The notes under the pieces: generated by a model
The model's database searches: none
Seen by the model: the letters and a program-made list of their open reading frames with translations, nothing else
What the model was told of the DNA's origin: nothing
In this document: in pieces, positions 13,612 through 35,864 of the stretch
Layout of the letters: each line of letters opens with the position of its first letter
Numbering within the stretch: position 1 is the first letter of the stretch
Translations under genes and position numbers: made by a program
Source: a virus
Reading direction: 5' to 3' (one strand)
DNA: 35,864 bases
IMG/VR virus record: IMGVR_UViG_3300005533_000001
Coordinates: 1 to 35,864 of that record

Positions 13612-13729
13612 GGCAGCGCTGGAACCTGTTCCGGCTCTTTCTCTGGGACGACAACTGGCTCCGGTTCCGGTGCTGGTTGACTGATCGGCAGGTGAAGCGG
13701 CTCCACCACAATGGTGCGCTTGGGTTCGC

Positions 13730-14374: not shown

Positions 14375-14376
14375 GG

Positions 14377-15627: not shown

Positions 15628-15941
15628 GCTGCTACTCCCTGTCTGCCCGCATAGCGCGGGAGAAAGAAATCCTTCAATTTGCCAGTCTCCCGGTCAATAT
15701 GACGGCGGATGCCGAATATGTCATGGACGAAATCCGTCTGATCGGCCCGCAGCAATTCGGCTAATTGCAATGGGCAGCCGTTCGCGTGAACGGCAATCAC
15801 GTCCATAAGCGTTTCGCGCTGGAACTTGGTGGCTTCTTTATTCGACATAGCGCCGAATGCCTTGTCAGCCACTTTGACCGCGCGTTCTGCGATGCGTGCG
15901 GCCAGCGCATGATCTTCTTTGCTTGCGTTCCAGTTAATCAT
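15624..15941 (-). CDS. hypothetical protein
   Basis: 105 aa. 4-nt overlaps with both neighbours. Confidence 0.45.
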   Translation of the reverse strand: MINWNASKEDHALAARIAERAVKVADKAFGAMSNKEATKFQRETLMDVIAVHANGCPLQLAELLRADQTDFVHDIFGIRRHIDRETGKLKDFFLPRYAGRQGVAA

Positions 15942-16246
15942 GCGTGCCCCATTGGCGTGCCAGTGGGCACTAATCCGCCCATGGCCTCTTCGAGTGATTT
16001 CTTCGTGCGGGCCTGATGGGAATGCACCACGCCAGCTACCATGATGCAGGCAAGGAAATCTGCTGGCATCTGTGTTTCGGCCACGATCTTATCCATGGCT
16101 TCGCGGCAATTCTTCTCGTTCTCCGCATCCTCCGGCGTTTCGGCGTTGGGCATGACTTCCAAGATGATCTGCGCGGCCACGCGAAGCACGGCCCGATTGT
16201 CCACCAAGGGCAGCTTCAGTTCTTTAACTTCAATTTCTGGTTTCAA
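15938..16246 (-). CDS. hypothetical acidic protein
   Basis: 102 aa. 4-nt overlaps with both neighbours. Confidence 0.45.
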   Translation of the reverse strand: MKPEIEVKELKLPLVDNRAVLRVAAQIILEVMPNAETPEDAENEKNCREAMDKIVAETQMPADFLACIMVAGVVHSHQARTKKSLEEAMGGLVPTGTPMGHA

Positions 16247-16581
16247 TTTGATTCTCCCTCTTCTTTAATGTTTCCCGGTTCCAAGAATTCGATTCCGGTG
16301 ATCTGCTGTTCGTCGCTATTTATTGTGAGCCTCGCGACCGTAGCCTCGTTATACCGCGACAACTGGTAATTCAGGTTTTGCACAATCATGGTGGGCTGCA
16401 AGGTGACCATCCACGTGGCTACCTGTGGCAGCTTGGGCAGCAGGTGAAACAATAACCGCGCAATAAGATGACGTGGCATCTCCATGCGCTCACCCCGGCC
16501 CCAATCGAACAGGATTGCGCCATTGCGCTGTTCTACGCGCAGATTGGCTACCTTGGTATTGATTGTCTTAGTCTGCGTCAT
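16243..16581 (-). CDS. hypothetical protein
   Basis: 112 aa. A GGAGGG RBS is present in the strand complementary to 16582-16595. Confidence 0.45.
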   Translation of the reverse strand: MTQTKTINTKVANLRVEQRNGAILFDWGRGERMEMPRHLIARLLFHLLPKLPQVATWMVTLQPTMIVQNLNYQLSRYNEATVARLTINSDEQQITGIEFLEPGNIKEEGESN

Positions 16582-16641
16582 AACCCTCCATCGCTGGCCA
16601 CGCTTGTTTTCATGGCCAGAGTCGAAAGTTACGCCACGTTC

Positions 16642-17778
16642 TCAATCACAACTGCGTCGGCGACGCCTTTGTTTTCGATCTTGCGCGGCTGCAACAACTT
16701 CGCCAGCGTACTCCTGCAATTCCAGCTTGCGATGCTCATCCTGAGTCTCATTACTGAGCCAGCTTAGGGCATTCGACCAGCGCCATTTGGTTTGACCCGC
16801 AGGCAGCAGTTCAATATCAGGTGATGCGAACTTTTCCACCACATTGACGCCCTCTTCTTTGTTGAGGTTCTTCTTGACCCAGTTCTGAATGTCATGGGTG
16901 GCGATCTTTTCCTCATTCGCCGCCTTGAGCAATCCAAGAGTCTGATTCACGGCTCCCGGCCCCAGAACATTTTCGGACAAGTCTTTGATTGCCGATGCCA
17001 TGGTCTGAGTATCCAACGCATAGGTGCGCTCACTCAGGCGAACATTGTCCGGCAATCTCTTGCCCAGATGCACCTGCTTGAGCACAGATTCGAGCGTCGC
17101 GAGATTTGTACACCACATCCGCTCAAGAATCAATGACAATGTGAGATAGCCATCGCCAAAGTCTGAGTCGCCCAGTTCCGCGCCAATGGCAACCAGTTCG
17201 CCGGGGAATGGCTCAAACACATACGGCAAAAAGCACCGCACTTTGATCTTGGTTTGCAGCGCGAATCCATCAATCGGACGCGCACCGTATTGCCGGATGG
17301 CTCCCACGAATGCCTCAAGCAGTGGTCGCGAGTCCAGACGGCGGAAGTGATCGGACAAGAAACCGCGCGTCTCGCCCTTCACATTGCGCAGCAAGAAGCG
17401 GTCGCCGTTCAGGTGGCCATACAGTTCGGTCAGATTATGGGCAATCAGTTGCTTGCCCCAATCCTTGGCTTGCAGTTCAGTTAGATAGCGTCCGGGGAAA
17501 TTGACCCGTTCGGCTGCCTGTCGCAGGGCATGCGGATGGATGGCCAGCGCATCCGCTTTGGTATCAGGGGTGATGATGGCCAGACCCTTTTCGCCGCTTT
17601 CAAACCGCAGCGCTTTCCCGGCCACGATCATGTCTTGCGGCACATCGTTCTGTACCTGTTCAATGACCCGTTCCACTCTGGGAACGGATAGGTGGAACCT
17701 CTCATCGAGTCGCCGCTGGAATTCTTTGGCGGAATCCGAGACGGCCACGTTATATTCGCGTGAATCATGGTGAATCAT
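16642..17778 (-). CDS. hypothetical protein (378 aa, no recognisable NTP-binding motif)
   Basis: Long ORF with an AGGAGA RBS upstream on the minus strand. Confidence 0.55.
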   Translation of the reverse strand: MIHHDSREYNVAVSDSAKEFQRRLDERFHLSVPRVERVIEQVQNDVPQDMIVAGKALRFESGEKGLAIITPDTKADALAIHPHALRQAAERVNFPGRYLTELQAKDWGKQLIAHNLTELYGHLNGDRFLLRNVKGETRGFLSDHFRRLDSRPLLEAFVGAIRQYGARPIDGFALQTKIKVRCFLPYVFEPFPGELVAIGAELGDSDFGDGYLTLSLILERMWCTNLATLESVLKQVHLGKRLPDNVRLSERTYALDTQTMASAIKDLSENVLGPGAVNQTLGLLKAANEEKIATHDIQNWVKKNLNKEEGVNVVEKFASPDIELLPAGQTKWRWSNALSWLSNETQDEHRKLELQEYAGEVVAAAQDRKQRRRRRSCD

Positions 17779-17811
17779 TGTTTTTCATTTCTCCTAATTC
17801 ATTTGACAACA

Positions 17812-18021
17812 CTAACTCGGGGAGTAGATGTTATTTATTTCTACGCCGCCATTCATTTCTTCTGGCACATCAATGGCCCAGAGTCCATTGTTTACTTCGT
17901 CACGTTCTGTTCGGCTGCCAGTGGTCGCGAGTAAGTCAAGAAACTCCTCCGCCTCTTGTGGCGTATAGAATTTGGTGACGGTACCGCGCGGACTGACAAC
18001 ACTCACCTGTGGCCCATTCAT
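17812..18021 (-). CDS. hypothetical small acidic protein
   Basis: 69 aa. 4-nt overlap with the upstream gene. Confidence 0.4.
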   Translation of the reverse strand: MNGPQVSVVSPRGTVTKFYTPQEAEEFLDLLATTGSRTERDEVNNGLWAIDVPEEMNGGVEINNIYSPS

Positions 18022-23393: not shown

Positions 23394-23806
23394 GCCGTGG
23401 TCTCACGGTACGGTCGGAAGTTTTTGCCATGGCTTATTCGCCATCACTTCGCCTAATTCCCAATTGGCCAATATCGCGCGCAATGCGCCATAACGCGCGG
23501 AGGGTTTCAGATGACCCTAACCTATCAATATTCCCAACCCTCGCCTGTAGGCTAATAACTCACGAATACAACCTATGTACTCTCTATACACTGGCTTATT
23601 GATTCCGCATTACTTAGCTTATGTACTATGTAGTAATACCCTATCGAAGAAAAGGCGAATCATCCAATGGATACAATAGCTTACAGGCAGTTTTCGCCCT
23701 ATGTTCACTTGCGCCGTTTGTTCGTCTTGCGCTATTCATTCGCCAAGACTGAAAATAGATCATGAAAAGCGGAGGAGATGACACCGCGCGCCGTTTTTCT
23801 GTGGGT

Positions 23807-23830
23807 CATCTCATCTCCATCTCATCTCAT
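23807..23830. repeat. tandem repeat CATCTCATCTC x2 (TCTCAT family)
   Basis: Read directly from the sequence. TCTCAT also recurs at 23961, 23976, 24287 and 24292. Confidence 0.55.
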
Positions 23831-23994
23831 TTTTGCGCGTCCAGTCGCGTCCAATTAGCCTCCAGTGGCGCGCTAGGTCTCAAGCCATGGCGAATTCCGC
23901 AATATTACATAATGCGTAATGCCCACTAACCGCTTTGCCTTGTACCGTTTGCGCGCGCCCGTCTCATTGTCACGTGTCTCATGCGACCGCGCCA

Positions 23995-24045
23995 TAGCGA
24001 CGGCGAAGAAACGGCGAAGACGCGAGCGAATGAAAAGCGAAAAGA
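23995..24045. repeat. inverted copy of the phased pentamer array (GCGAA, 11-12-bp period, 4 copies)
   Basis: GCGAA occurs at 24003, 24014, 24026 and 24037. This is the reverse complement of the array at 21357-21418. Confidence 0.5.
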
Positions 24046-24154
24046 GCGGGTGGTAGAGGCTTTTGGGGGGTGGGGGTGAACCCCATTTGCGGGTAGTGCA
24101 ATTGCCTACTCCTTCTCCCCAATCCCGTTTCTTCTTTCTGTAGCCTTCCCCGGT

Positions 24155-24180
24155 AGCCTTTCGCCGTTGTTTCGCCCTTA
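24155..24180. repeat. two further TTCGCC copies 11 bp apart
   Basis: TTCGCC at 24160 and again at 24171. Confidence 0.4.
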
Positions 24181-24294
24181 GTGCGGTCAAAATGCGTTTT
24201 GTAGGTTAGGTCAGGGTGCGGAGGTAATGCGGAAGGGAAAAACGGCGGGAAGATTTTAATTGCATCGCGGGGGGATTGAGGGTAATCTCATCTC

Positions 24295-24308
24295 ATATCA
24301 TATGATAT
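24295..24308. promoter_or_regulatory. perfect 14-bp palindrome ATATCATATGATAT downstream of candidate promoter TTGCAT-17-TAATCT (24260-24288)
   Basis: Palindrome read directly from the sequence. The -35 matches 5/6 and the -10 is weak. Confidence 0.35.
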
Positions 24309-24496
24309 CAACCGGCAGCCAGCCCGCAGCGGGGATAACGGTGTTGGAGGTGCTGATCTATTACGGGTTGTTACTGGCCGCCGCCATGATTTGGCTTCAT
24401 TTCGGCATGAAGAAGTGCCGCTATTGCGGCAGACATAGGATGGATGGACACAAAAAGGAGTGCCCGCGCTATAGCGCCAAGAGAGGATACCTACTA

Positions 24497-24961
24497 ATGG
24501 AAACACACGTTGAACTGCCCAAGCCCACCTTGAACGTCGAACTGCTGTTGAAGGTGAAAAACCATATTCTCGAAGAACCCAAGCGCCTGCGCATGTCGAA
24601 GTGGTTCATTAAGGGCACCCCGAATGGCCATGGCAGATCAGTATCGCGTGGTTACGGCGAACCCATCGACTTTGAAGTCCCAGCTTGCGGCACTGTGGGC
24701 TGTATTGCCGGATGGACAGAACTGCTCAACCACCCTGAAGATTACGAAGGTGCCACCGGCATCAGTGGAGTGCACTGCGGTCGCGCCAAGAACGAACTTG
24801 GCCTGATAGACCAAAGCCTGTTTTTTGTTGATTGCTGGCCAGAACCCTACAAGTCCGACTATTACCAAGCCGAAGACAACCAGACGCGCGCCCAGATTGT
24901 AGGCGCGCTCATCGACAAACTGATTGAAGTTGGCGAAGAACAGCTTTTCGGGCGGGAGTAA
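24497..24961 (+). CDS. paralog A of a duplicated Cys-motif protein family (KHILEEPKRLRM ... CGTVGCIAGW ... LFFV.CWPEPY)
   Basis: GAGAGGA RBS upstream of ATG 24497. The in-frame upstream ATG at 24406 would add a CRYC...ECPRY zinc-knuckle extension. Shares a conserved nucleotide block with 28270-28317. Confidence 0.55.
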   Translation: METHVELPKPTLNVELLLKVKNHILEEPKRLRMSKWFIKGTPNGHGRSVSRGYGEPIDFEVPACGTVGCIAGWTELLNHPEDYEGATGISGVHCGRAKNELGLIDQSLFFVDCWPEPYKSDYYQAEDNQTRAQIVGALIDKLIEVGEEQLFGRE

Positions 24962-24964
24962 ATC

Positions 24965-25204
24965 ATGTCCATTCGCAAGTGGTGGCGCGATTTCTGGGAT
25001 ACTGATAAAGAGATTCGCGTCTACGCCAAGCGGCAAAGGCTGTTGGCCAATATGATGCTTGCCGAGGTGGAGAAAGTTCATTCCGGGGCCGCCGTGACTG
25101 CCGACGCCGTAGCGCGAATCAAGGTGTTTGAGGAAAAACTGGACGCCATGACCAATGACCAATTGCTCGAATACCAGCCTGCGCCGGAGGAAGGTGGCCA
25201 ATAG
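24965..25204 (+). CDS. hypothetical small protein
   Basis: 79 aa. Starts 4 nt after the upstream stop. Confidence 0.4.
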   Translation: MSIRKWWRDFWDTDKEIRVYAKRQRLLANMMLAEVEKVHSGAAVTADAVARIKVFEEKLDAMTNDQLLEYQPAPEEGGQ

Positions 25205-25461
25205 TGATCGAACAAGAACGCATTCGCGCGCGACAATGGATTAAGCAGCACTTCCCCGATATGGAGCCATCCGACCTGACCATTGAACTGATGGCCTCAT
25301 TCTCGGCTTCGGCTGATCCTAACCAGTGTCGCGATGAATCGGCCCGTTTGCGCAAGATTTTAGAAAAGTACGCTTATTGCCGCCACGCCCAGATCAACTG
25401 CAACTGCACCATGGAAGCGCGGGCGGCGCTATTTGAACCCCAAACTCAAAGGACACCATGA
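25204..25461 (+). CDS. hypothetical small protein (C-terminal CRHAQINCNC)
   Basis: 85 aa. GTG start overlaps the upstream stop. Confidence 0.4.
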   Translation: MIEQERIRARQWIKQHFPDMEPSDLTIELMASFSASADPNQCRDESARLRKILEKYAYCRHAQINCNCTMEARAALFEPQTQRTP

Positions 25462-25607
25462 AACGATTCGCGGGAATATTACTCGATCAGCGCTGACTTC
25501 GCCAAGCTGGCGGTGCGGTTTGGAGGACTGGTGGCACGGGCAAGATCGCAACGGGTGGTGGATTGGATGCAGGCGATGGAGATTGAATCGCAGAAAGTGA
25601 GCACGAA

Positions 25608-25844
25608 ATGAGCGACGAAGCCAAGTGGATTCGATTCCGCGAAGTTGCGGCAACGGGTAAGACGCAGCGATGGCTGGTCGAGACGCTTACAGGCGTGACC
25701 ATCGGCACTGTACATTGGTGGGGTGCGTGGAGGCAGTATTGCTTTTCGCCGGAGGCCAACACCATCTACGAACGTCAGTGTTTGCGAGACATCGCCCAAT
25801 TCTGCGAATCCCGCACACGAGCCACAAGAACTTGCCCCGTCTAA
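25608..25844 (+). CDS. hypothetical small protein
   Basis: 78 aa. Confidence 0.4.
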   Translation: MSDEAKWIRFREVAATGKTQRWLVETLTGVTIGTVHWWGAWRQYCFSPEANTIYERQCLRDIAQFCESRTRATRTCPV

Positions 25845-25868
25845 AAGTTGAGGAGAAAGGACTAGATT

Positions 25869-26117
25869 ATGGGTCGGCATAACTTCGGTTATGTTTGGCG
25901 ACGGAGAAAGAGTGGTTACAGGCTGGACTGGAAACTGATTGCGACGGACACTTTGATGCCAATCGTGTGCGCTGTCATCGGGCATCGCATTTGGGACTCC
26001 GCAATGGGATACGGCCCTCCTAGTTGGGCGTGCAAACGCTGTTTCCGCTACGTCCCTGCCGAGCAGATAACCCTGCGCGAATGGGCGCGAAAGGAGGTCT
26101 CCGATGTCGAGCGATGA
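25869..26117 (+). CDS. hypothetical small basic protein
   Basis: 82 aa. GGAGAAAGGA RBS upstream. Confidence 0.45.
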   Translation: MGRHNFGYVWRRRKSGYRLDWKLIATDTLMPIVCAVIGHRIWDSAMGYGPPSWACKRCFRYVPAEQITLREWARKEVSDVER

Positions 26118-26502
26118 ACTGGAGCAGAAGGTGGCCGGGGAATTTGGCCCGTACTTCAACTGCCTTGATATTTGGGGATACAACGACAGGCTGCGAGTGT
26201 GGAAGGCTCTTCTAGCGGCACGCGCCGAGATCGCACGGCTCTCTCAATCTTTGGCCGATGCCGCGAACGAAATCCACTGTGCTGGCCCGGTCGATCATCG
26301 TATCCGCGTTGTGCGTGCGGAGTGGTCGGAAGCGTTGGAGAAGAAAGAGGCCCGCGTCCGCGAACTGGAACTTGACCTCGCCGCCGTGCTGGTGGTGCTG
26401 CGGTCGAAATCGACAGACCAAGAGTGGGAAGGGATGCCGGTCGGATTTCGCGAGGCGTATGCGGCCAGTCAGGAGAAGAAAAATGCTATCACCGGGAACT
26501 GA
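26104..26502 (+). CDS. hypothetical coiled-coil protein
   Basis: 132 aa. 14-nt overlap with the upstream gene. Confidence 0.45.
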   Translation: MSSDELEQKVAGEFGPYFNCLDIWGYNDRLRVWKALLAARAEIARLSQSLADAANEIHCAGPVDHRIRVVRAEWSEALEKKEARVRELELDLAAVLVVLRSKSTDQEWEGMPVGFREAYAASQEKKNAITGN

Positions 26503-26890
26503 GCTTTACGCCATGTACCACACACTCTGGACGAAGGCCGTTGGCACTCAGGGCTACGACAAGAATGAGTGGGCAAAGTTTGGAGAGCTAATTAAGCAAG
26601 AGGCTGCGGCGACGGAGGCAGGGAAGCTGCGGGAGGCACTGACGCCAGTGGTTCCGCTGTTGGAGAAATTATTTCGCTGGCAAGAAGCCGGATTCAGCGT
26701 CGTTGCCACAGAGGATCGCAAGATTCTTGACACAGCGAAGGCGGCACTCGCACCCGCCAAGACTGCCGCTGCATCTCCGCACTCTTTTGTGTCGTATGCT
26801 GGCTCCAGATGCTGCTCTACGTGCGGCCACTATCTCGACCATGAACTGCACCAGAGCGCACCCGCCAAGACTGCCGAGGAGGGGAAATGA
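26484..26890 (+). CDS. hypothetical protein
   Basis: Start chosen at internal ATG 26484 (MLSPGTELYAMYHTLW) of the track ORF 26258..26890. Confidence 0.4.
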
Positions 26891-27150
26891 TCAACGGCAA
26901 TGCGATTCAAGACGAAGCGTTAGGTGCTGCGATACAAGGGGCAGCGCGAGACTTGCCGGAGGGATGGCAGATTCAAATCACGATAGAAAAGGGCGCAGGA
27001 TGGGCGCGACTATACAATTCCGAAGGAATCAGGGTTGACGATTTCGATAGTACCGATCTCGGTCTGCAAGAGTCGATTGTGCGCGGAATCGGGATGGCAG
27101 TGCGGGCGGCGGAGAAGACTGGAGGCAGCGAAAATGGCGAGAATAATTGA
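26887..27150 (+). CDS. hypothetical small protein
   Basis: 87 aa. ATGA overlap with the upstream gene. Confidence 0.45.
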   Translation: MINGNAIQDEALGAAIQGAARDLPEGWQIQITIEKGAGWARLYNSEGIRVDDFDSTDLGLQESIVRGIGMAVRAAEKTGGSENGENN

Positions 27151-27170
27151 TCCAATGACGCAGCAGGAAA

Positions 27171-27602
27171 TTGAGGTCGAGTGCGTTCCTTGCTTTGAAG
27201 AGGAGGGTAGCCGAGCGTGCGTTAGATTTGCACACCAAACTGAGCCAACGACTGAAATCAGAGTCGGCAGCGAAAGCCCGTGCGTTGACGGAAGCAGAAT
27301 TGGCGAACACGCCAGAGGGTAAGTTTCTAACACAGGTTGCACGCGAACTGGCGGAACAAGAGCCAGAGTCAATGTGCCCATCCTGCCACATGCTACCCGC
27401 AGCTATGATAATGCGTGTCTCGCAGGAAGCTATGCGACGTTGGGCAGACTCGGTGCGGCGGGAGACGCTGGAGGAAGCGGCCCAGATTGTCGAACGATGC
27501 TCGCTACCTTGTACTATGGCTGCGGAGAGAGACGAGACGCTTATACGTGCGAACATAGCGGCGGCGATACGCTCCCTCGCGGCAGAGAAGACGAAATTAT
27601 GA
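27171..27602 (+). CDS. hypothetical helical protein
   Basis: 143 aa with a TTG start. The short alternative ORF 27134..27322 in another frame cannot be excluded. Confidence 0.3.
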   Translation: MRSSAFLALKRRVAERALDLHTKLSQRLKSESAAKARALTEAELANTPEGKFLTQVARELAEQEPESMCPSCHMLPAAMIMRVSQEAMRRWADSVRRETLEEAAQIVERCSLPCTMAAERDETLIRANIAAAIRSLAAEKTKL

Positions 27603-27778
27603 TGAGTGAATCTCGTACTTGTAATTGGTACCGCTGCGATAAAGGCAAGCGGGATACTGCGGTCTATGAAGTAACCGGAGAACATATCGATGGCAAGACC
27701 GTAGATCGCCGCTATTGTGACGAGCACGCCGCCGCCTGCGAGAAGGCAGGCTTTACCGTTGCGCCAAAAAACCGATGA
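27599..27778 (+). CDS. small Cys-rich protein (59 aa)
   Basis: ATGATG start overlaps the upstream stop. Contains CNWYRCD...YCDEHAAAC. Confidence 0.4.
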   Translation: MMSESRTCNWYRCDKGKRDTAVYEVTGEHIDGKTVDRRYCDEHAAACEKAGFTVAPKNR

Positions 27779-28056
27779 GCGACCCGAAATTCAGGCCATC
27801 TGTGCAGCTTCGCTTCCGCAGCGCGGCGCAGTTCGCGCGCGTGAAGAAAGCCGCCGAAGACGAGGGCATTTCTACCAATGAATACATTGTCCGCCTGCTG
27901 GAACTTGAGGAGAATCCGCGCGTGGGGAAATCCATGACCGATCTGGCCAAAATCATCGAGCAACGCAGCCGCGATCACGATACCAAATCATGCAGGCTCT
28001 ATGGCTGTGGCACTTGCCGGGTGATGGGCGTGAAGGACGTGAGTCGCGGCCTATGA
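27775..28056 (+). CDS. ribbon-helix-helix (CopG/Arc-like) DNA-binding protein
   Basis: LRFRSAAQFARVKKAAEDEGISTNEYIVRLL fits the RHH beta-strand plus helix pattern. Confidence 0.5.
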   Translation: MSDPKFRPSVQLRFRSAAQFARVKKAAEDEGISTNEYIVRLLELEENPRVGKSMTDLAKIIEQRSRDHDTKSCRLYGCGTCRVMGVKDVSRGL

Positions 28057-28331
28057 TTATTACCCGCACCGATGTGTGCCAGTGCGACGAATGCGGGCAT
28101 CCGTGGCTATCGCGTTGCAAGGGCGGGGCGCTCCCCGCGCAATGTCCGCACTGTCACACGCGGCACTGGAATGATTCTGTAATACCATTACCGAGAAACA
28201 GGAGAACCAATGGCAAAATCAAAAGCCGCCAAATACAAAGTTCCCGCAGCGGGCCGCAAATTGTTGTTGCGGGTAAAGAAACATATCCTCGAAGAACCCA
28301 AGCGCCTGCGCATGGCCGAATGGATGCTTAG
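28053..28331 (+). CDS. small zinc-ribbon protein (CQCDECGH...CPHCH)
   Basis: ATGA overlap with the RHH gene. The 3' end overlaps the next gene by about 120 nt, so the true end is uncertain. Confidence 0.35.
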   Translation: MIITRTDVCQCDECGHPWLSRCKGGALPAQCPHCHTRHWNDSVIPLPRNRRTNGKIKSRQIQSSRSGPQIVVAGKETYPRRTQAPAHGRMDA

Positions 28332-28746
28332 CAAGGAATATTGCGCCAACATGGAGCCAATTTTCCAAACCGCTGGTACGGCTTGGGGAGAACCCCCGCG
28401 CAGAGGAATACAATGGCCATCGTGTGGTACAACCGGCTGTATTGCCGGATGGATGGAATTGCTCGCCAACGGTATGCCAGAGGGCGACGCAGACTTAATG
28501 GACAGGATGGATAGCGCTCAGGAATTCGCCTCCAAGGTGCTGGAATTTGATAAGCAGCCATGGGGCACATACACCGAACCGGGACTTTTCTTTGTGAGCG
28601 AGTGGCCATACAAATTTGCCGAGAGCTACTCGAAGGCCAAGACTCAGGCCAAGCGCGCCAAAATTGTGGCTGCCGTGATTGATGACTTCTTGGCCGACCC
28701 GGAGCCTTACCTCCCCGCACCAGAACCCGAGGAAGGCGATGACTAA
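28210..28746 (+). CDS. paralog B of the duplicated Cys-motif family (KHILEEPKRLRM ... CGTTGCIAGW ... LFFVSEWPY)
   Basis: 178 aa. CAGGAG RBS upstream. Clear protein and nucleotide similarity to 24497..24961. Confidence 0.55.
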   Translation: MAKSKAAKYKVPAAGRKLLLRVKKHILEEPKRLRMAEWMLSKEYCANMEPIFQTAGTAWGEPPRRGIQWPSCGTTGCIAGWMELLANGMPEGDADLMDRMDSAQEFASKVLEFDKQPWGTYTEPGLFFVSEWPYKFAESYSKAKTQAKRAKIVAAVIDDFLADPEPYLPAPEPEEGDD

Positions 28747-29050
28747 ATCAGAGCGCGGCCCCCATGGCGATCAAATCGCCGTGGAGTATGGCGAGGAACG
28801 CGAACAGGAATTGTGGGATCATCGCGCCGACCGGCTGGCGAAACTCATCCGCCTGAAAGCGCCGCGCATTATCATTGTCCACTCCACGCTGATCTTGCTG
28901 GCGCATCATGGCATGTGGGACGCCATTAAATTCTGGCTGAAGACCCACTATTGGAATCAATGGAAATATACCGCGTGGTACGCTTGGCATAAGCATATCC
29001 TGCGGCACACCGATAAAGAGATTGAAAATCTTATTCTGGAGGGCAAGTGA
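28739..29050 (+). CDS. hypothetical protein (Trp/His-rich C-terminus)
   Basis: 103 aa. GATGACTAA overlap with the upstream gene. Confidence 0.45.
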   Translation: MTKSERGPHGDQIAVEYGEEREQELWDHRADRLAKLIRLKAPRIIIVHSTLILLAHHGMWDAIKFWLKTHYWNQWKYTAWYAWHKHILRHTDKEIENLILEGK

Positions 29051-29556
29051 AAAGAACCATCGCGTTGAGTCTGTTTCTCCTACTGGCCAGCCTGACCGGC
29101 TTGGCACAATCCCAACCCGCGCGGCCTGCATGGTTGCACGATGCAGCAAGCGAAAACCCCACAGCTAAGTTGTATAACGTGGATGCGCTCTATGCTGATC
29201 TGATCGAACCGGGTGGGGCCATTATGGCCGTCGCGGATTTCCCAACTCCGCCGCGAACCATTTCGCAGCATTCGGTTACCTTGGCGTGCTCTCCGCCTAC
29301 CAGCGGCGGCACCGTTACCGGCTATAACTTCCTGCGTGCCACAACCAGCGGCGGCCCCTATACTCTGCTGACTCCGGGCACGGCAAGCACCTGCAATTAC
29401 GTGGACACGCAAAGTTTGGTTGAAGGCACCACCTATTACTATGTGGCACAGGCAACCGGCCCCGGAGGTACAAGTGGCAACTCGAATCAAGCGAGCGCCA
29501 CGGTGCCGTTTCTGCCTCCGGGGGTACCATCGGGTCTGTCGGCCAATCCACTCTAA
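29047..29556 (+). CDS. secreted fibronectin-type-III-like domain protein
   Basis: The N-terminal signal peptide MKRTIALSLFLLLASLTGLAQSQ has an AxA-like cleavage site. An FN3-like segment follows (...YNFLRATTSGGPYTLLTP...TTYYYVAQA). Confidence 0.55.
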   Translation: MKRTIALSLFLLLASLTGLAQSQPARPAWLHDAASENPTAKLYNVDALYADLIEPGGAIMAVADFPTPPRTISQHSVTLACSPPTSGGTVTGYNFLRATTSGGPYTLLTPGTASTCNYVDTQSLVEGTTYYYVAQATGPGGTSGNSNQASATVPFLPPGVPSGLSANPL

Positions 29557-29565
29557 CAACTGTAA

Positions 29566-29841
29566 GTGCGTAAAGAATTGAAATGGGACTTGCAGGCCGA
29601 ATTAACAATCAGCCGTGGCCGGAAGGTCTACTTCCGGCTCACGCGCTGGTTTCCCTTTTCATGGATCAATCGAAGACACCGAGATAAAATCAACTCCTGC
29701 CTGCGCAAGATTCGCTACAAGAGTGAAGCCCATGCGGTAAACTGTGCATGGGAAAAAAAGAAGGGCCGCGTTGGTGCATACCAATGCGAATGCTGCGAGG
29801 GTTGGCATCTATACACCGTAAAACCAACTAAGCCACAATGA
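29566..29841 (+). CDS. small Cys-rich protein (CAW...CECCEGWH)
   Basis: 91 aa with a GTG start. Confidence 0.4.
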   Translation: MRKELKWDLQAELTISRGRKVYFRLTRWFPFSWINRRHRDKINSCLRKIRYKSEAHAVNCAWEKKKGRVGAYQCECCEGWHLYTVKPTKPQ

Positions 29842-30076
29842 CGGGGTGCGGCGCTTGAACGAAAAAACGGCAATCGGCGAATACGAGAAATTCCACCGGA
29901 ATGGCACAACCGCATCCATCAGCTTTTTGGAGTGGCTGAAACGCGAGCAGATCAAGATCGTGGACATAGACGACAAGGCGCAGTTTTGGATTAAGCCGAA
30001 CTGATATTCTCTTTTCATTCGCCTCCCTGTACAATCCTGAAAGCGGCGCAAGCCGTAATCTAATTTCAGGAGAAGT

Positions 30077-30223
30077 ATGAGTTTCAAATCCGTCCAGAAG
30101 TCCATTGCAAAGAAAGAAGGCGTTTCCAAAAAGAGCGCCGGGGCCATTCTGGCCAATTCGAGCCGCAACGCATCAGCCAAGGCCAAGAAGAAAAATCCCA
30201 AACTGAATCGCGTGAAGGGATAA
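30077..30223 (+). CDS. small Lys-rich basic protein (48 aa)
   Basis: ATG at 30077 lies 6 nt after an AGGAGA RBS. The ORF is absent from the 60-aa track. Confidence 0.4.
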   Translation: MSFKSVQKSIAKKEGVSKKSAGAILANSSRNASAKAKKKNPKLNRVKG

Positions 30224-30227
30224 TACT

Positions 30228-30506
30228 ATGTGTCCTGCCTGCGCCGGTCGCGGTGAAGTATCAGTCGGCATTACTACCGATGTGGTTGAGTATGGCCCCG
30301 AGGTAGAAGGCTACGACTGGCGCGGCAATATTATCCGGCAACGCGCCGCCTATCCCACCAAATGTACGTTGAATCCTGCCGCCTATGACAAACGCGCGAA
30401 GTGTGTGTGGTTTCTGGATGAGCCATACAATCTTTGGGGTAATGCGGTGTGCGCCGTTTGTCATGGTACCGGGGAATGTGGAAGCAACGCGACGCAATTG
30501 AGTTGA
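30228..30506 (+). CDS. zinc-finger protein (CPAC...C...CAVCHGTGEC)
   Basis: 92 aa. Confidence 0.45.
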   Translation: MCPACAGRGEVSVGITTDVVEYGPEVEGYDWRGNIIRQRAAYPTKCTLNPAAYDKRAKCVWFLDEPYNLWGNAVCAVCHGTGECGSNATQLS

Positions 30507-30733
30507 TGCAGCAGTACAAAGATGTAACCCCCTGCGCCGACTGTGGGGGGCACTACCGCTACTACCAGAAAGAATTTGACCATCCCCCCGGAACCAAGGT
30601 CTATAACTTAGGCACCCACGGTAGAAAACTTACCGAAATAATGCTTAGGATCGAAATGGCTAAATGCGACGTGGTTTGTAAAAACTGCCACGCCGAACGT
30701 ACCCACAAAAGGCAAACCCAAAAACGCAAATGA
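30449..30733 (+). CDS. HNH endonuclease
   Basis: CADCGG...FDHPPGTKVYNLGT...CKNCHAERTHK matches the HNH motif (C..C, DH, N, C..CH). An ATG at 30505 is an alternative start with an ATGA overlap. Confidence 0.6.
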   Translation: MRRLSWYRGMWKQRDAIELMQQYKDVTPCADCGGHYRYYQKEFDHPPGTKVYNLGTHGRKLTEIMLRIEMAKCDVVCKNCHAERTHKRQTQKRK

Positions 30734-30966
30734 AACGTCTATCCGCTGGAAGTTGTACCGATGCACTCATGGAGGCGCTTGAACATGTAGAGGACATGCA
30801 GCACGTGGTTGTCCTCTTTGAGCCGGTTGAAGGTCACCCCGGTGGTTTCTTTACTGACGGCCAGTACACCGCCGCCGAATCGTTGTGGCTCGCGACCCGG
30901 TTTATTTCTTTCCTCACTCGCCACCCTTGCGCCTGTGAAGTCGATGAAGACGGAGATGGCGCATGA
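30730..30966 (+). CDS. hypothetical acidic protein
   Basis: 78 aa. ATGA overlap with the upstream gene. Confidence 0.4.
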   Translation: MKRLSAGSCTDALMEALEHVEDMQHVVVLFEPVEGHPGGFFTDGQYTAAESLWLATRFISFLTRHPCACEVDEDGDGA

Positions 30967-31163
30967 GTGTAGTGGTTGTCATCGTTCTTGACTCGGCAGA
31001 GCGCTTTACTACCAGCCATGAGTTCTTTGTTTCGCGCAGCCGATTCGGTTATACAATTTTGAGCGTCGAGGCTTTTCGCCAATTACCGGAGGAAGCGCTT
31101 GCGTCACTGGTTCCACTTACCATTCCCCGGATGGCACTCGATCAACGGGGAGGCAACGCATGA
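30963..31163 (+). CDS. hypothetical small protein
   Basis: 66 aa. ATGA overlap with the upstream gene. Confidence 0.4.
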   Translation: MSVVVVIVLDSAERFTTSHEFFVSRSRFGYTILSVEAFRQLPEEALASLVPLTIPRMALDQRGGNA

Positions 31164-31537
31164 ACGAACAGCAGACCAATGTACTTGTGCCACCAGTAGT
31201 GCCAGAACCTACGCCGGAGGAAGCGGGCGCGATTGTGGTTGTGCCATCTGCGGAGGTAGATGAACTGCGTGAAGAAATTCGGGCGCTGCGCGCCAAGATA
31301 GCCGAGTTCCACTATCAACCAGCGGTAGGTGACAAACTTAACCTAATTGGCTTGCGCGATACCCTGCTGGCGCTGCGCGATGCGACTTACTGCCCGCTTT
31401 GCCATTATCCCGAATGGGCGTCCGACCGCGCCACTCATTACCTTGAACCTTCGCCATGCAAGCTGGGCGTATATACTGAAGCCCTGCTGAAGATCGCACC
31501 CAAAGAAGGAGCCTCGGTCAAATGGCGCAAGGGCTAA
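31160..31537 (+). CDS. hypothetical protein (Pro-rich N-terminus, coiled coil, CPLCH)
   Basis: 125 aa. ATGA overlap with the upstream gene. Confidence 0.45.
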   Translation: MNEQQTNVLVPPVVPEPTPEEAGAIVVVPSAEVDELREEIRALRAKIAEFHYQPAVGDKLNLIGLRDTLLALRDATYCPLCHYPEWASDRATHYLEPSPCKLGVYTEALLKIAPKEGASVKWRKG

Positions 31538-31584
31538 GGCAACTCCCCTAAACTAACTTTCGTCGCGATTCATTCGCCCCGGAG

Positions 31585-31866
31585 TTGCCCATGCAAGAGA
31601 CTACTTTTAGCGGCCCGCACGTATTAGGGTCGCTGGCTTTTGCCATCTTATTCACCCGCGAAGTATTCGATTTTGTATCCCGCATGAAAGGCGGGAAGAA
31701 TGGCAAAAATGGCAATGGCCACGCCGGGTCACAGTCAGTCGATTATTGGAGAAACGAATTCCGCGCCGCCATTCGCGAGGAAGCCGCCACGCAGGAAGAG
31801 ATGCTGAAAGATATCCGCGATGGCGTAAATGAATTAGTGATTCTGGAGCGCAGGCGACAGTCGTGA
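31585..31866 (+). CDS. small membrane protein (N-terminal TM, charged C-terminus); holin-like topology
   Basis: 93 aa. Hydrophobic stretch GSLAFAILF, then a Lys/Gly-rich segment and a charged helix. Confidence 0.45.
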   Translation: MPMQETTFSGPHVLGSLAFAILFTREVFDFVSRMKGGKNGKNGNGHAGSQSVDYWRNEFRAAIREEAATQEEMLKDIRDGVNELVILERRRQS

Positions 31867-31873
31867 CCATTTA

Positions 31874-32209
31874 ATGGACACAAATCGCCCCAGATGCACT
31901 ATAATCGGGGCGATGCCTAAGCCGCTATTACTGGACGGCAAGCCATTGACGCAGGAGAGGCGTGCGGGGCCAGCTTTGAATCGAGTAATCGCCTTTCTTG
32001 AAACCCTATCCGACAATGAAGTGGTCACCTTGGCTGAGTTTGAGCAATACCACCTAATGAGCCGTGAGCGCATTAAGTCGGCGGCCAAGCACCATCCAGC
32101 CCTTGCCCCCTATAGTTATCTGGTTCCACGTGGTAGCGGTGGTGGTTATTACATTTTGGGCAGCAAGAAAGCAATTGCCGCTGCCAAAAGGGTGTTCTCT
32201 AAAATTTGA
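31874..32209 (+). CDS. hypothetical protein (possible wHTH)
   Basis: 111 aa. Confidence 0.45.
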   Translation: MDTNRPRCTIIGAMPKPLLLDGKPLTQERRAGPALNRVIAFLETLSDNEVVTLAEFEQYHLMSRERIKSAAKHHPALAPYSYLVPRGSGGGYYILGSKKAIAAAKRVFSKI

Positions 32210-33246
32210 AAATTGCCGATCTGGCCGCAAAGACCAAAGCAGCAGAGAATGAACAGATTGAACATCTCCGGGCTAAGAGCGCCGAACTAGATAAAGAAGT
32301 TCGCCGCCTTCGCCAAATCATTGGTGAGCAACGCGAGATAGCTACCGGCCTCGTTGCCGCCGTGAAGGCCACCGATCCCTTCCCGCGAATCGCGTGGAAG
32401 TCTCCCGCCAAGTCCGGCAAGCCCATCATCCCGGTGTTGAAATTGAGCGATCTACACATCGGTGAAGTTATCAGGAAGGATGAGACTGAAGGCTTTGGCG
32501 CGTTCAATTGGGACATTGCGCAAGAGCGTGCTGCCTACATTGTGAATAGCTTTCTGCGCTGGGTTGAGACGCAGCGATATGGTTACCGCATTGATGAGTG
32601 CTGCATTTTTGGCGAGGGCGATTACATCTCCGGCGACATTCACCGCGAGTTGTCTGTGACCGCCGAGTTTCCCGTGCCGGTGCAGACCGCTAAGGCTGGC
32701 TTGTTAATTGGCCATCTCATTTCGCTGATCGCCCCGCATTTCGCTAAGGTTACATTCCACCAAGTTGGTGCCGATAACCACAGCAGGCTCAATCCAAAGC
32801 CGCAATTCAAACAGAAAGCACAGAACAGCTACAGCTATTTGGTGCATACCATCGCCGCACAGGCGTTGGCGAACCACAAAAATGTTGAAATTGTAACCGC
32901 GACCGGAATCAAACATCTGGCCAGCGTCAATGGTTTTCGTTTCCTGATTGAGCATGGCGACACCGTGAAAGCCTTCATGGGCATTCCATGGTATGGGCTT
33001 GAGCGGTCGCGCGCGAGAGAGGCGACGCGGCGCATGAATACCGACAAGGGGTTTCACTATATGAGCATTGCCCACTGGCACGTGCCATGCCTGATTGGCA
33101 ATAGCATTGTAGTCAACGGCTCATTATGCGGAACCAATGAATTCGATCATGGGTGCGGCAGATATGCTGCCCCGGCGCAGGTTGCATTCATGGTTCACCC
33201 GGAGCACGGAATGTTCGGCTTGACCCCGTTTCGCACAGAAATTTGA
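32206..33246 (+). CDS. calcineurin-like metallophosphoesterase with N-terminal coiled coil
   Basis: Metallophosphatase motifs appear in order: DLHIG (DxH), GEGDYISGD (GDxxD), ADNHSR (GNH-like), EHGD, HWHV (GHxH-like). The start is a TTG that overlaps the upstream stop. Confidence 0.5.
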   Translation: MKIADLAAKTKAAENEQIEHLRAKSAELDKEVRRLRQIIGEQREIATGLVAAVKATDPFPRIAWKSPAKSGKPIIPVLKLSDLHIGEVIRKDETEGFGAFNWDIAQERAAYIVNSFLRWVETQRYGYRIDECCIFGEGDYISGDIHRELSVTAEFPVPVQTAKAGLLIGHLISLIAPHFAKVTFHQVGADNHSRLNPKPQFKQKAQNSYSYLVHTIAAQALANHKNVEIVTATGIKHLASVNGFRFLIEHGDTVKAFMGIPWYGLERSRAREATRRMNTDKGFHYMSIAHWHVPCLIGNSIVVNGSLCGTNEFDHGCGRYAAPAQVAFMVHPEHGMFGLTPFRTEI

Positions 33247-33396
33247 ACTTTTTTCACAACCAAATCAACCAGATGCAATTACAATGTTGACAGTAAGGCA
33301 GTAGGCCATGGCAGCATTAGGTAGTGGGGACTATCGTATGTTGCCATGGCTGATTGATTGTGATGACGCATTTGAGTTCTTTCTGGACATTGCCCA

Positions 33397-33699
33397 ATGG
33401 AAAAGAAACCAGACGCAAAATTTGAGCAAGGCTCAACCCGCTCCCACCACGCACCACGGTACGAACTACTCCCAAAAGCCGCGATTGACCGACTGGTAAA
33501 GCGGCTCGAAATAGGCGCTGAAATTCACGGCGACCACAATTGGCGCGGCGGCGGCCCAGAGTTCATTGCCGAAACCAAGCGTCACCTTGTTGCTCACGTT
33601 CTCAACTTTAGCGAGGGCGATACCAGCGACGATCACCTGTCGGCCATCCTATGCAATGCCGCCTTCCTAGCCCACTTTGAGGCTCAAAAGAAGCCGTGA
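33397..33699 (+). CDS. small all-alpha NTP-pyrophosphohydrolase-like protein (MazG/DUF550-like, tentative)
   Basis: LEIGAEIHGDHNWRGG resembles a G..KYG..NW motif, and DDHLSAILCNAAFL resembles a MazG-like helix. There is no good RBS. A competing ORF 33308..33499 lies in another frame. Confidence 0.4.
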   Translation: MEKKPDAKFEQGSTRSHHAPRYELLPKAAIDRLVKRLEIGAEIHGDHNWRGGGPEFIAETKRHLVAHVLNFSEGDTSDDHLSAILCNAAFLAHFEAQKKP

Positions 33700-34298
33700 C
33701 ATCCACCATTCAGGTTTACTCAGGCGGACTAATTGACCCGCTGCGGCCCAACCCGAGTGATATCCACATAGAAGACCTAGCGCATGCCCTGTCCAATATC
33801 TGCCGATTCACCGGCCACACTTCCAGCTTCTACAGCGTAGCCGAGCACGCTGTCCGCGTCAGTGCGATCTGTCCGCCAAAAGATCAGTTCTGGGGCTTGA
33901 ATCACGATGACAGTGAAGCCTATCTCTGCGATTTTGCGCGCCCCATCAAGCACCATCCACGCATGGCCATCTATCGCGAAGCCGAAGAACGATTGATGCG
34001 CGTCATCGCCAAACGCCTTAGCTTGGAAATGCCGATACCGGAAAGCGTGAAGCGCGCCGACACCATCCTGCTGATGACCGAATGCCGCGATCTGATGAAG
34101 CCGCTCCAGTGGGAGTGGAATAATGGCCTGCAACCATTGCAGGAAAGAATCGTTCCATGGCCACCACAAAAAGCCAAGGAAGCATTCTTGGCGCGCTTCT
34201 ATGAACTGGCCGCCGCGCAGTTGAGGAACGAAAGACGAAGTGAGCAACGATACGCTGATCGCCGCCGCAAAACTAAGAGCCAAACAACTGGCGCTTGA
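33696..34298 (+). CDS. HD-domain phosphohydrolase (YfbR-like 5'-deoxynucleotidase family)
   Basis: SVAEHAVRV (H), GLNHDDSEAY (HD) and a downstream CDF..P.KH fit the HD superfamily pattern. Confidence 0.6.
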   Translation: MTSTIQVYSGGLIDPLRPNPSDIHIEDLAHALSNICRFTGHTSSFYSVAEHAVRVSAICPPKDQFWGLNHDDSEAYLCDFARPIKHHPRMAIYREAEERLMRVIAKRLSLEMPIPESVKRADTILLMTECRDLMKPLQWEWNNGLQPLQERIVPWPPQKAKEAFLARFYELAAAQLRNERRSEQRYADRRRKTKSQTTGA

Positions 34299-34668
34299 TT
34301 CCGCCTTGGTCTGCGCTGTCTGTGAACAGGAAAGCGCTTGGAACCCGTGGGCCATCCGTTACGAACCAGCGTTTTACGATGAGTATGTTCGCCCGCTCAA
34401 GTTGTCCTCCGACACCGAAGCACACATGCGCTCTGTCAGTTGGGGCTTGATGCAGGTGCTTGGTCAGGTGGCGCGCGAGCGCGGCTATCGCGATGAGTTG
34501 GCCAAGTTGTGTGATCCCGATGTAGGTCTGGCGGTCGGCTGCGATGTGCTGAAGGCCAAACTGGCCGAAGCTGGCGGCAACATCCATGACGGGTTGCAGC
34601 GGTACAATGGCGGCGGAAATCCGCTCTACGCGGAGCAAGTCATGGGCCGCATGGCTAAATTTGCCTGA
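34240..34668 (+). CDS. lytic transglycosylase (SLT domain) endolysin
   Basis: CAVCEQESAWNPWAIRYEP and SWGLMQV are canonical GH23/SLT signatures. GTG start with a GAGGA RBS. Overlaps the upstream gene by 59 nt. Confidence 0.7.
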   Translation: MSNDTLIAAAKLRAKQLALDSALVCAVCEQESAWNPWAIRYEPAFYDEYVRPLKLSSDTEAHMRSVSWGLMQVLGQVARERGYRDELAKLCDPDVGLAVGCDVLKAKLAEAGGNIHDGLQRYNGGGNPLYAEQVMGRMAKFA

Positions 34669-34723
34669 CCCCCTTGTGCTTCCACAGCCAGCCGTGCAAG
34701 AATGCGGTTTAGTCAAGACGACT

Positions 34724-34782
34724 AGCCCGACGCGGGTTCCTCTCTCTCCTTCTCGGAAAACCTCCAAGTCCCGCGTCGGACT
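34724..34782 (+). promoter_or_regulatory. inverted repeat (CCGACGCGGG / CCCGCGTCGG, about 33-nt loop) abutting the promoter
   Basis: Read directly. Located 6 nt upstream of the -35. Confidence 0.4.
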
Positions 34783-34788
34783 TCAAAT

Positions 34789-34817
34789 TTGACAGGTTTC
34801 CAATCTCTCCCTATAAT
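34789..34817 (+). promoter_or_regulatory. sigma70 consensus promoter TTGACA-17-TATAAT
   Basis: TTGACA at 34789-34794, a 17-nt spacer, then TATAAT at 34812-34817. All 12 hexamer positions match consensus. It lies in a 300-nt intergenic gap before the gene at 34970. Confidence 0.6.
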
Positions 34818-34969
34818 TCCTATCAATCGTTGTTGCTTTGCATTGTGCAATTGGGCTGCCGGGTGTTTGACTCCTTTCTACCGGTGGCCCAATTAAATTC
34901 AGGAGATTCAGTAATGACACAATTCAATTCATGGAGGTGCATATGGCAGAACCCTAGGTGAGGTGAATT

Positions 34970-35707
34970 GTGAAACCACATTTCTCGAAACTCCTGACTG
35001 AAAAGGAGCGGCGCGGTTCTCGCAACCGGTCAGCCAAGTACCATCTTTCCATCCACAGCTACGATCCCGACCAAGACTACGACTTTCCATCGCGTGCGCC
35101 CATGTCGCGCAACGGGATGCCCTACGGTTATGACGGCAAGGAATTGTCCGATGTTCTCGGCCCACTCAAGGGCTGGCTCCGCAAGAACATTGGCCGCCCA
35201 TGGAATGCGGTATATAGCGAAGCCTGCCGCAACCTTGACCGGCGCAGCGTAAGCGGCAATCACGTTTTCCAGCACCTAATGGATTACGTGGAGACCAATT
35301 GCTGGATTGGCGCGGAAACCGGCAAGGTCTACAGCAATGGCCGTCGCGGCCCCACAGAAGTCTGGCGCGATTACTACGTCCACCCATGGACTGGCCTGCT
35401 ATGCAAAGCCCCAGACGGCCCATCGTGGCGTCGGCGCTATCCGCGCACCGCGCCAGATGACACCGTGAAAATTTCCGACAATGCCGAATACAAACAGATT
35501 GACGGCATCTGGTACTACACCGAATTCACTTGGGTGAAGCTGTACTACGGCGGCTATCAAGGCAAATGGCGCGTTGATGACACCGGGCGCGTTGTTGGTG
35601 GCTGGAATCGGCGCGGTGAAATGGAGCAAGTCATTCAAAAGAAACGCCAACTCTCCAAAAAAGAATTGCGCGGTCTAAAGCTACGTAATTCGCTCCCCCA
35701 ACTTTGA
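34970..35707 (+). CDS. hypothetical protein (245 aa, Trp/Tyr/Arg-rich)
   Basis: GTG start 6 nt after AGGTGAGGTG. Confidence 0.5.
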   Translation: MKPHFSKLLTEKERRGSRNRSAKYHLSIHSYDPDQDYDFPSRAPMSRNGMPYGYDGKELSDVLGPLKGWLRKNIGRPWNAVYSEACRNLDRRSVSGNHVFQHLMDYVETNCWIGAETGKVYSNGRRGPTEVWRDYYVHPWTGLLCKAPDGPSWRRRYPRTAPDDTVKISDNAEYKQIDGIWYYTEFTWVKLYYGGYQGKWRVDDTGRVVGGWNRRGEMEQVIQKKRQLSKKELRGLKLRNSLPQL

Positions 35708-35736
35708 TAGTTTTGTTCCCGTAGGAGAAAGCCCCA

Positions 35737-35864
35737 TGTGGAACAAAATTACAATCTGGTGGAGCAAACTGCCTCACCCGGTACAGGCGGCCATAACCGC
35801 ATTTGGTTCCGGCGTAGTAGGTGTGGCCAAACCGCTGCTTGAGCAGTGGTCATCCGGCCAAGCG
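35737..35864 (+). CDS. hypothetical protein, 3' truncated by window end (hydrophobic N-terminal region)
   Basis: ATG 35737 lies 8 nt after GGAGAAAG. The ORF is still open at the window edge. Confidence 0.4.

Follow-up and report, generated by a model that had tools for sequence, protein, structure and literature searches.

Two unrelated phage cassettes side by side upstream of a lysis gene: a partner protein with a metallophosphoesterase of nuclease type, and a DUF5664-HD pair predicted to hydrolyse deoxynucleotides

The stretch of viral DNA analyzed here (IMG/VR record IMGVR_UViG_3300005533_000001, positions 1 to 35,864; this whole stretch of 35,864 nucleotides is called the window, and all positions below are positions in it) contains towards its right end three consecutive genes, ORF1 to ORF3, which an initial annotation from the sequence had read as one unit of three phosphohydrolases directly upstream of an endolysin gene. 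We found that ORF1-ORF3 are two unrelated phage cassettes side by side and not one module. Cassette A (31874-33246) consists of ORF1, a calcineurin-like metallophosphoesterase (MPE), and of a small partner protein encoded by an open reading frame (ORF) directly upstream (31874-32209), which the initial annotation had missed. Cassette B (33397-34298) consists of ORF2, a stand-alone DUF5664 protein, and ORF3, an HD-domain hydrolase of the YfbR/YfdR type. In the explanation that we favor, to which we give an even chance, the two are independent, translationally coupled cassettes, of which the first would provide a DNA-directed nuclease with its partner and the second a drain from deoxynucleoside triphosphates (dNTPs) via deoxynucleoside monophosphates (dNMPs) to deoxynucleosides.

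All genes of the region are on the plus strand. The partner gene (31874-32209; 111 aa) and ORF1 (32206-33246; 346 aa, TTG start) overlap by 4 nt (TTGA) at the stop codon of the one and the start codon of the other, and in the same way ORF2 (33397-33699; 100 aa) and ORF3 (33696-34298; 200 aa, GTG start) overlap by 4 nt (GTGA). ORF1 to ORF3 and the downstream ORF4 (34240-34668) have exactly the coordinates first assigned to them, and identical genes were called on an independently assembled Logan contig of this phage (L006) that matches the window at 100% identity from 23397 to 35864. At E ≤ 0.001 there were 313 homologs of ORF1, 25 of ORF2 and 461 of ORF3; since each has tens to hundreds of homologs, the three are genuine genes rather than chance ORFs. 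That they represent three phosphohydrolase folds was borne out.

The first cassette was recognized from 80 IMG/VR loci anchored on homologs of ORF1, with 80 loci anchored on the HD protein as controls. An ORF of the partner family was present directly upstream of the MPE and on the same strand in 53 of the 74 viral loci with room upstream, and in none of the 80 controls; the junction between the two genes is usually a 4-nt overlap. The cassette commonly adjoins either terminase and portal genes or lysis genes. The partner family combines a variable N-terminus (helix-turn-helix (HTH), Zn-ribbon-like or none) with a conserved C-terminal domain of ~90 aa, and the protein encoded in the window is a short divergent member. 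It was linked to the family by BLAST matches to ORFs upstream of MPE homologs in three loci (E = 6e-8 in L001, 9e-16 in L177 and 1e-14 in L176) and by an hhalign comparison of its subgroup with the main partner family (probability 97%, E = 1.2e-10). Pfam, PHROG and PADLOC gave no match to the partner family except a weak, sub-threshold one to HTH_8 on the N-terminus of one representative, and in the PDB there were only sub-significant matches to winged helices of the Z-alpha/Lrp kind (E 0.2-0.9). The conserved C-terminal domain is possibly a winged helix, and the partner in the window would be a small nucleic-acid-binding protein. The idea that partner and MPE might occur as a fusion was given up, as no partner domain was present in those MPE homologs that are longer.

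In the closest relative of the cassette (L176; 68% identity) the block up125-up93-partner-MPE is syntenic with the window, and the MPE gene runs straight into the lysis gene (PG_binding_3), with neither a DUF5664 nor an HD gene. Co-occurrence was counted with hidden Markov models (HMMs) within about 5-6 kb of the anchor gene. Of the 80 MPE-anchored loci, 5 contained DUF5664, 4 contained HD and 2 contained both families; among the 80 HD-anchored loci, DUF5664 was found in 4 and MPE in 2, which means that these families pair in ~5% of related loci. MPE and HD genes are adjacent in L007, L019 and L028, and L028 has all three families. The view of ORF1-ORF3 as a unit did not survive these results: ORF1 is paired with its upstream partner, L176 lacks the other two genes, and the pairing is seen in 4-5 of 80 loci. 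Because the L176 block runs directly into PG_binding_3 and the closest DUF5664 relative is coupled elsewhere, the DUF5664-HD pair looks as if it had been inserted after the MPE cassette, ahead of the lysis gene. In IMG/VR, the retrieval of loci related to the DUF5664 gene yielded a single locus.

ORF1 had been described as a calcineurin-like MPE with a coiled-coil N-terminus, and its identity as an MPE was confirmed. Pfam gave no match; in PHROGs it matched phrog_284, labeled 'exonuclease' (E = 3.9e-41). The five calcineurin-like motifs (DxH, GD, GNH(D/E), H and GHxH) are all present, with D82-x-H84, G138-D139, N191-H192, H250 and H290-x-H292 invariant in 53 homologs. The AlphaFold2 model (pLDDT 91) starts with a single long helix comprising residues 3-55, which is followed by an alpha/beta sandwich; weak matches to GCN4 zippers are consistent with a coiled coil. 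In a Foldseek search with this model the top structure was the 3'-5' exonuclease DP1 of PolD (E = 3.5e-9), then came Mre11, LpxH and the B-subunits of eukaryotic polymerases. The best folds are DNA nucleases, well ahead of phosphodiesterases. The family is large (1442 clusters at 50% identity, E ≤ 1e-30), and its members in cultured phages are labeled 'DNA repair exonuclease', 'Mre11-like nuclease' or, wrongly, 'DNA polymerase'. Some homologs have HTH_ParB or HTH_Tnp_1 N-termini. Three homologs of ~755 aa (P0334, P0354 and P0364) harbor inteins (Hint + LAGLIDADG) in motif II, inserted precisely after GD-x-x and ahead of SGDIH, a site that corresponds to residues 141/142 of ORF1; inteins are typically located in such active sites of enzymes of DNA metabolism. 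Judging from the structural model, ORF1 is probably a DNA nuclease.

The likeness of ORF1 to PolD DP1 and Mre11/SbcD is confined to the catalytic domain, with a sequence identity of 11-16%, and we assign ORF1 to neither family. DP1 has an OB domain and DP2 as partner, and Mre11 has a capping domain and Rad50/SbcC as partner, whereas in the ORF1 model neither a capping nor an OB domain was found and neither an SMC-like nor a DP2-like gene adjoins ORF1; the protein has instead the long N-terminal helix and the small, winged-helix-like partner. Locus L003 (an ENA contig, 10001-17917, from a different phage of ~102 kb) also shows that the phrog_284 MPE and the Mre11/SbcD of the phage are different proteins, because there the MPE homolog coexists with a separate SbcD/SbcC-like pair. 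In L003 the MPE homolog is followed by an Endonuclease VII and then by a DUF5664 protein of 193 aa. A precedent for a phage MPE directed against host DNA is gp48 of mycobacteriophage A10ZJ24, which has phosphodiesterase activity and causes both damage to the DNA of the host and silencing of defence genes (PMC12287305). It is of a different subfamily: its motif I aspartate is residue 10 and it has, unlike ORF1, no N-terminal helix; none of the 59 phage records matching ORF1 is from a mycobacteriophage.

ORF2 had been labeled MazG/DUF550-like. Its size of 100 aa and its all-alpha fold (AlphaFold2 model, pLDDT 82) stand; the family has to be revised. In Pfam, ORF2 matched PF18909 (dGTP_diPhyd_N, formerly DUF5664) with E = 5e-14 and 52.5 bits (cut-off 27), and 25 out of 25 close homologs carry this domain, whereas neither PF04447 (DUF550), the family of MazZ from phage S-2L, nor the MazG models of Pfam were matched. 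A comparison of ORF2 with S-2L MazZ by hhalign revealed no similarity (probability 0.1%). In a Foldseek search of the PDB the ORF2 model had no significant match, the best structure of the MazG type being S-2L MazZ (TM-score 0.42, E = 3.6). By these findings ORF2 is not a member of MazG/DUF550.

The protein on which the functional assignment of ORF2 is modeled is gp51 of the Arthrobacter phage Wayne (ALY10775.1), whose PF18909 domain was aligned by hhalign over the whole of ORF2 (probability 96%, E = 3.3e-9). Both proteins have the PF18909 signature R-[FY]-[DE]-L-[IL]-P, GA..[YH]...NWR.G, RH and [DS]HL.A. Wayne gp51 has been measured to be a dNTP pyrophosphohydrolase that prefers dATP over dUTP over dGTP and yields dNMPs; formation of dNMP and pyrophosphate (PPi) from dNTP has been shown only for this protein and for a DUF5664-DUF550 fusion of phage SH-Ab 15497 (PMC12884076). 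From its sequence, ORF2 is predicted to catalyze the same reaction (dNTP → dNMP + PPi). The two differ in that Wayne gp51 contains an N-terminal extension of ~95 aa and adjoins PurZ0 in a Z-genome phage, while ORF2 is the bare domain with no PurZ nearby.

ORF3 matched phrog_318 in PHROGs (E = 7e-66) and, as a single sequence, the PDB entry 2GZ4 (Atu1052; E = 2e-11); with the profile of its family, Atu1052 (1.4e-27), Lin2634 (2.4e-5) and YfbR (8e-5) were found in the PDB. With the Pfam model PF12917 the score of 13.9 bits was below the cut-off of 25.9, which a minority of the homologs pass, so that it is the profile and PDB matches that place ORF3 among the YfbR-like proteins. ORF3 has the HD fold and the H...HD..E....D...D pattern in common with the prophage protein YfdR, the uncharacterized Atu1052 and the 5'-deoxynucleotidase YfbR of E. 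coli (PDB 2PAQ). The residues R37, H51, H70, D71, E74, D79 and D122 are invariant in 43 homologs and correspond to the metal, catalytic and deoxyribose-binding pattern of YfbR, in which H33, H68, D69, E72, D77 and D137 are the metal ligands, the catalytic Glu and the deoxyribose-binding Asp. HDasEaylvDlarPiK in ORF3 is aligned with HDASEVLTGDLPTPVK in YfbR, including the chain of the E72A mutant (2PAR). With these residues and the profile match, the earlier classification of ORF3 as a YfbR-type HD protein was upheld, and by sequence it is a divergent, phage-centered branch (phrog_318), predicted to be a 5'-deoxynucleotidase (dNMP → deoxynucleoside + Pi).

Among cultured phages, the top relative of ORF3 (49% identity) is gp101 of Tunturi_4, a phage of Tunturiibacter (Acidobacteria), in which the genes for DNA polymerase, the HD protein and dUTPase follow each other. 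HD homologs are located in modules for replication and nucleotide metabolism, and genes of these kinds make up most of their direct neighbors. Among the 150 ORFs immediately flanking ~78 HD loci were 7 for RecA, 5 for dUTPase, 5 for PolA and 3 for DUF5664.

The substrates, the order of the reactions and the physiological role we infer from the gene structure, family memberships, folds, conserved catalytic residues and neighborhood statistics. In the favored explanation both cassettes would close a rightward operon that ends immediately ahead of the lysis gene. Cassette A, with its nucleic-acid-binding partner and its MPE of the PolD-DP1/Mre11 type, would be a nuclease, probably an exonuclease, whose substrate is DNA rather than free nucleotides. 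In cassette B, ORF2 would convert dNTPs to dNMPs and PPi, the likeliest substrates, by comparison with Wayne gp51, being dATP, dUTP and dGTP, and ORF3, acting in series, would hydrolyze the dNMPs to deoxynucleosides and Pi, so that part of the deoxynucleotide pool would be irreversibly drained or sanitised during infection. The role in dNTP pools that had been considered for all three enzymes is plausible for ORF2 and ORF3, which belong to families with characterized members acting on dNTPs and dNMPs, and would not extend to ORF1, which is probably DNA-directed.

Several findings weigh against this explanation. An HMM of the main partner family alone, built with the window ORF 31874-32209 left out, missed this ORF, which is why its link to the family rests on the BLAST chains and hhalign. 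ORF2 is a bare domain of 100 aa, compared with the 198 aa of Wayne gp51, to which it is 27% identical over the domain, so the explanation assumes that the domain is active by itself. The DUF5664 gene nearest in sequence (73% identity) is coupled to an unrelated ORF of 456 aa and the small terminase gene, and pairing of DUF5664 with HD is rare (3-5 of 80 loci). Finally, YfdR, the closest relative of ORF3 to have been studied experimentally, is reported to have an affinity for nucleotides much below that of YfbR and to bind DnaA (PMC4776307).

The last point leads to a different assignment, in which ORF3 would not be a nucleotidase in the first place and would mainly block initiation of host replication via DnaA, the DUF5664 protein being a functionally unrelated pyrophosphatase with a house-cleaning role, which would remove dUTP and non-canonical dNTPs. 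This assignment is favored by the identity of ~40% between ORF3 and YfdR-like proteins from E. coli and Stx phages and by the cleavage of dUTP, too, by the Wayne enzyme (PMC12884076). We nevertheless regard this assignment as rather unlikely: that all catalytic and metal residues of the YfbR type are invariant across the 43 homologs argues for retained catalysis, the 4-nt overlap of ORF2 and ORF3 suggests co-expression, and HD homologs repeatedly adjoin genes for dNTP pyrophosphatases (dUTPase and DUF5664).

The initial annotation had also asked whether enzymes of this kind destroy immune signals of the host or prepare base replacement, and to both questions the answer is mostly negative. That at least one of the three enzymes degrades immune messengers (cyclic oligonucleotides, cyclic ADP-ribose derivatives or cyclic oligoadenylates) is very improbable, no evidence for it having been found. 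The fold of ORF1 points to DNA nucleases well before phosphodiesterases, and its family carries DNA-binding fusions; the characterized members of the ORF2 and ORF3 families act on dNTPs and dNMPs, and ORF3 has retained the YfbR-type residues and not the pattern of HD-GYP proteins. PADLOC, which covers defence and not anti-defence genes, gave no match.

For base replacement the model is S-2L, in which PurZ, MazZ and DatZ are encoded in this order by overlapping genes next to the terminase gene. In both phages a gene for an NTP pyrophosphatase is followed by an overlapping gene for an HD hydrolase near late genes, and both pairs would edit dNTP pools; MazZ, however, belongs to PF04447, unlike ORF2, and DatZ to phrog_7076, a remote relative of ORF3. 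Candidacy of ORF3 as DatZ was rejected, as the hhalign probability was 27%, the PHROGs differ (phrog_7076 and phrog_318) and DatZ was not among the PDB profile matches at E ≤ 10. In a genome with base replacement the DUF5664 and HD proteins would take the roles of MazZ and DatZ, so that one canonical dNTP would be eliminated and a dNMP made available as precursor, and a PurZ-like or another modification enzyme would be encoded elsewhere in the ~102-kb genome. Such a role would be in line with the overlap of ORF2 and ORF3, which parallels that of MazZ and DatZ, with the occurrence of DUF5664 proteins in PurZ and PurZ0 phages (PMC12884076), with the membership of DatZ in the YfbR-like Pfam family and with the fact that the gene content seen covers 53 kb, ~47% of the contig lying outside. 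DUF5664 is, however, widespread in phages with ordinary genomes (PMC12884076), and the closest relative of the flanking block does without the DUF5664-HD pair. A tblastn search with S-2L PurZ found nothing in the window and the 8 kb downstream, in agreement with the earlier statement that the window has no PurZ, and among the genes called at record positions 22.4-75.5 kb (53 kb of the ~102-kb contig) there was no Pfam match to adenylosuccinate synthetase (Adenylsucc_synt) or DNA polymerase. The gene order, which had been thought suggestive of base replacement, resembles S-2L by the MazZ-DatZ analogy only, and we consider a function in base replacement very improbable.

A functional parallel is the pre-early operon A2-A1-dmp of phage T5, where A1, a predicted metallophosphatase, together with the DNA-binding A2 drives the degradation of host DNA (bioRxiv 10.64898/2026.04.02.716235). 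The order DNA-binding protein, metallophosphatase, dNMP phosphatase is the same as in the window, by analogy only: homology of A1, A2 or Dmp to the window proteins was not detectable, and T5 Dmp belongs to phrog_415 (PHROG label 'polynucleotide kinase') and is not an HD protein. All three enzymes could then serve one takeover of the host of the T5 kind, the MPE and its partner degrading host DNA to dNMPs, the DUF5664 protein converting dNTPs to dNMPs and the HD protein converting all dNMPs to nucleosides for export, with replication proceeding on nucleotides made de novo. The functional layout and gene order of the T5 operon favor such a takeover, as do the three loci in which MPE and HD are adjacent, including the one with all three families. 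It is unlikely in view of the lack of sequence homology to the T5 proteins, the association of MPE with HD in only 4 of 80 loci, a closest MPE relative that has neither HD nor DUF5664, and the fact that at record positions 22.4-75.5 kb no genes for de novo nucleotide synthesis were seen. Within the favored explanation of two independent cassettes, A and B may still cooperate as in T5, with the breakdown products of DNA and the dNTPs both being funneled to nucleosides; such a cooperation is not conserved in either family.

With the same reserve as the T5-like takeover, as a rather speculative proposal, we mention that the partner and the DP1-like MPE might be a widespread uncharacterized two-component phage nuclease for destruction of the host genome or for counter-defence, joined in this phage by an inserted drain from dNTPs via dNMPs to nucleosides, so that the T5 strategy would have been rebuilt from non-homologous parts.

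If the proposed chemistry is true, the phage has a compact pathway that drains dNTPs to deoxynucleosides in two steps, and pool editing by a stand-alone DUF5664 domain would be added outside the Z-genome phages. The conserved partner-MPE cassette marks out a phage family that is large and unstudied and whose catalytic domain resembles that of DP1 and Mre11; the cassette is the only element with real potential for novelty, the enzymes otherwise belonging to known kinds.

The two cassettes are separated by a spacer of 150 nt (33247-33396, plus strand) containing a long hairpin, formed by an inverted repeat (33305-33325 and 33330-33350) with 21-nt arms of 81% complementarity. The RNA fold of the spacer has a free energy of -52.6 kcal/mol (z -3.76), and 1 of 200 shuffled sequences was equally stable. 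No T-run terminator was called in the spacer and no T-run follows the hairpin; an Rfam scan, in which the hairpin was included, gave no match. The hairpin could serve for processing or attenuation where the two cassettes meet.

At the other end of cassette B, ORF3 extends by ~25 non-conserved residues beyond its homologs, with a basic tail (RNERRSEQRYADRRRKTKSQTTGA) whose coding sequence overlaps the start of ORF4 by 59 nt (34240-34298) in a different frame. ORF4 (142 aa) is a lytic transglycosylase with an SLT domain (Pfam SLT, E = 2.4e-9; 37.2 bits, cut-off 21.3), a putative endolysin that forms the downstream edge of the region; a GAGGA sequence is located 11 nt 5' of its GTG start. A second SLT-domain protein is encoded at 12192-12695 (plus strand), directly 3' of large structural ORFs, and is probably a virion-associated lytic transglycosylase; either of the two SLT proteins may be the endolysin. 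At 30228-30733, some 1.5 kb 5' of the MPE cassette, a CxxC-rich ORF of 92 aa overlaps an ORF for an HNH endonuclease (30449-30733; phrog_2255, 1.4e-14).

The window is a slice of a contig of ~102.3 kb, which is probably a complete genome, since three assemblies recovered nearly the same size (102,259 to 102,370 bp). The phage is a soil phage whose host is probably among the Acidobacteria, and is very poorly annotated, most of its ORFs having no PHROG match. The genome encodes an adaptor of the SU10 type (window 1961-2971) and two Endonuclease VII proteins; upstream of the window there are a cluster of methyltransferase genes and genes for an NAD-dependent epimerase/dehydratase and a histidine phosphatase. 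When the region was searched as DNA against cultured phages, only a match of 83 nt to Caulobacter phage Seuss was found; a search of NCBIfam gave nothing useful, and PADLOC and tRNA scans were empty.

Between 21000 and 24000 the GC content of the window falls from about 0.53-0.55 to 0.49, and the cumulative GC skew has its minimum (-0.83) where a minus-strand block (12.7-21.3 kb) switches to a plus-strand block (from 24.2 kb); a divergent regulatory region or an origin may be located here. The ORFs 24260-24961 and 28210-28746, which belong to the same operon, both match phrog_889 (function label unknown) and may be paralogs. A sigma-70 promoter in full agreement with the consensus (TTGACA, 17 nt, TATAAT; 12/12) is present on the plus strand at 34789-34817, between the SLT gene and an ORF of 245 aa (34970-35707), and is the sole promoter-like site within 30500-35864.

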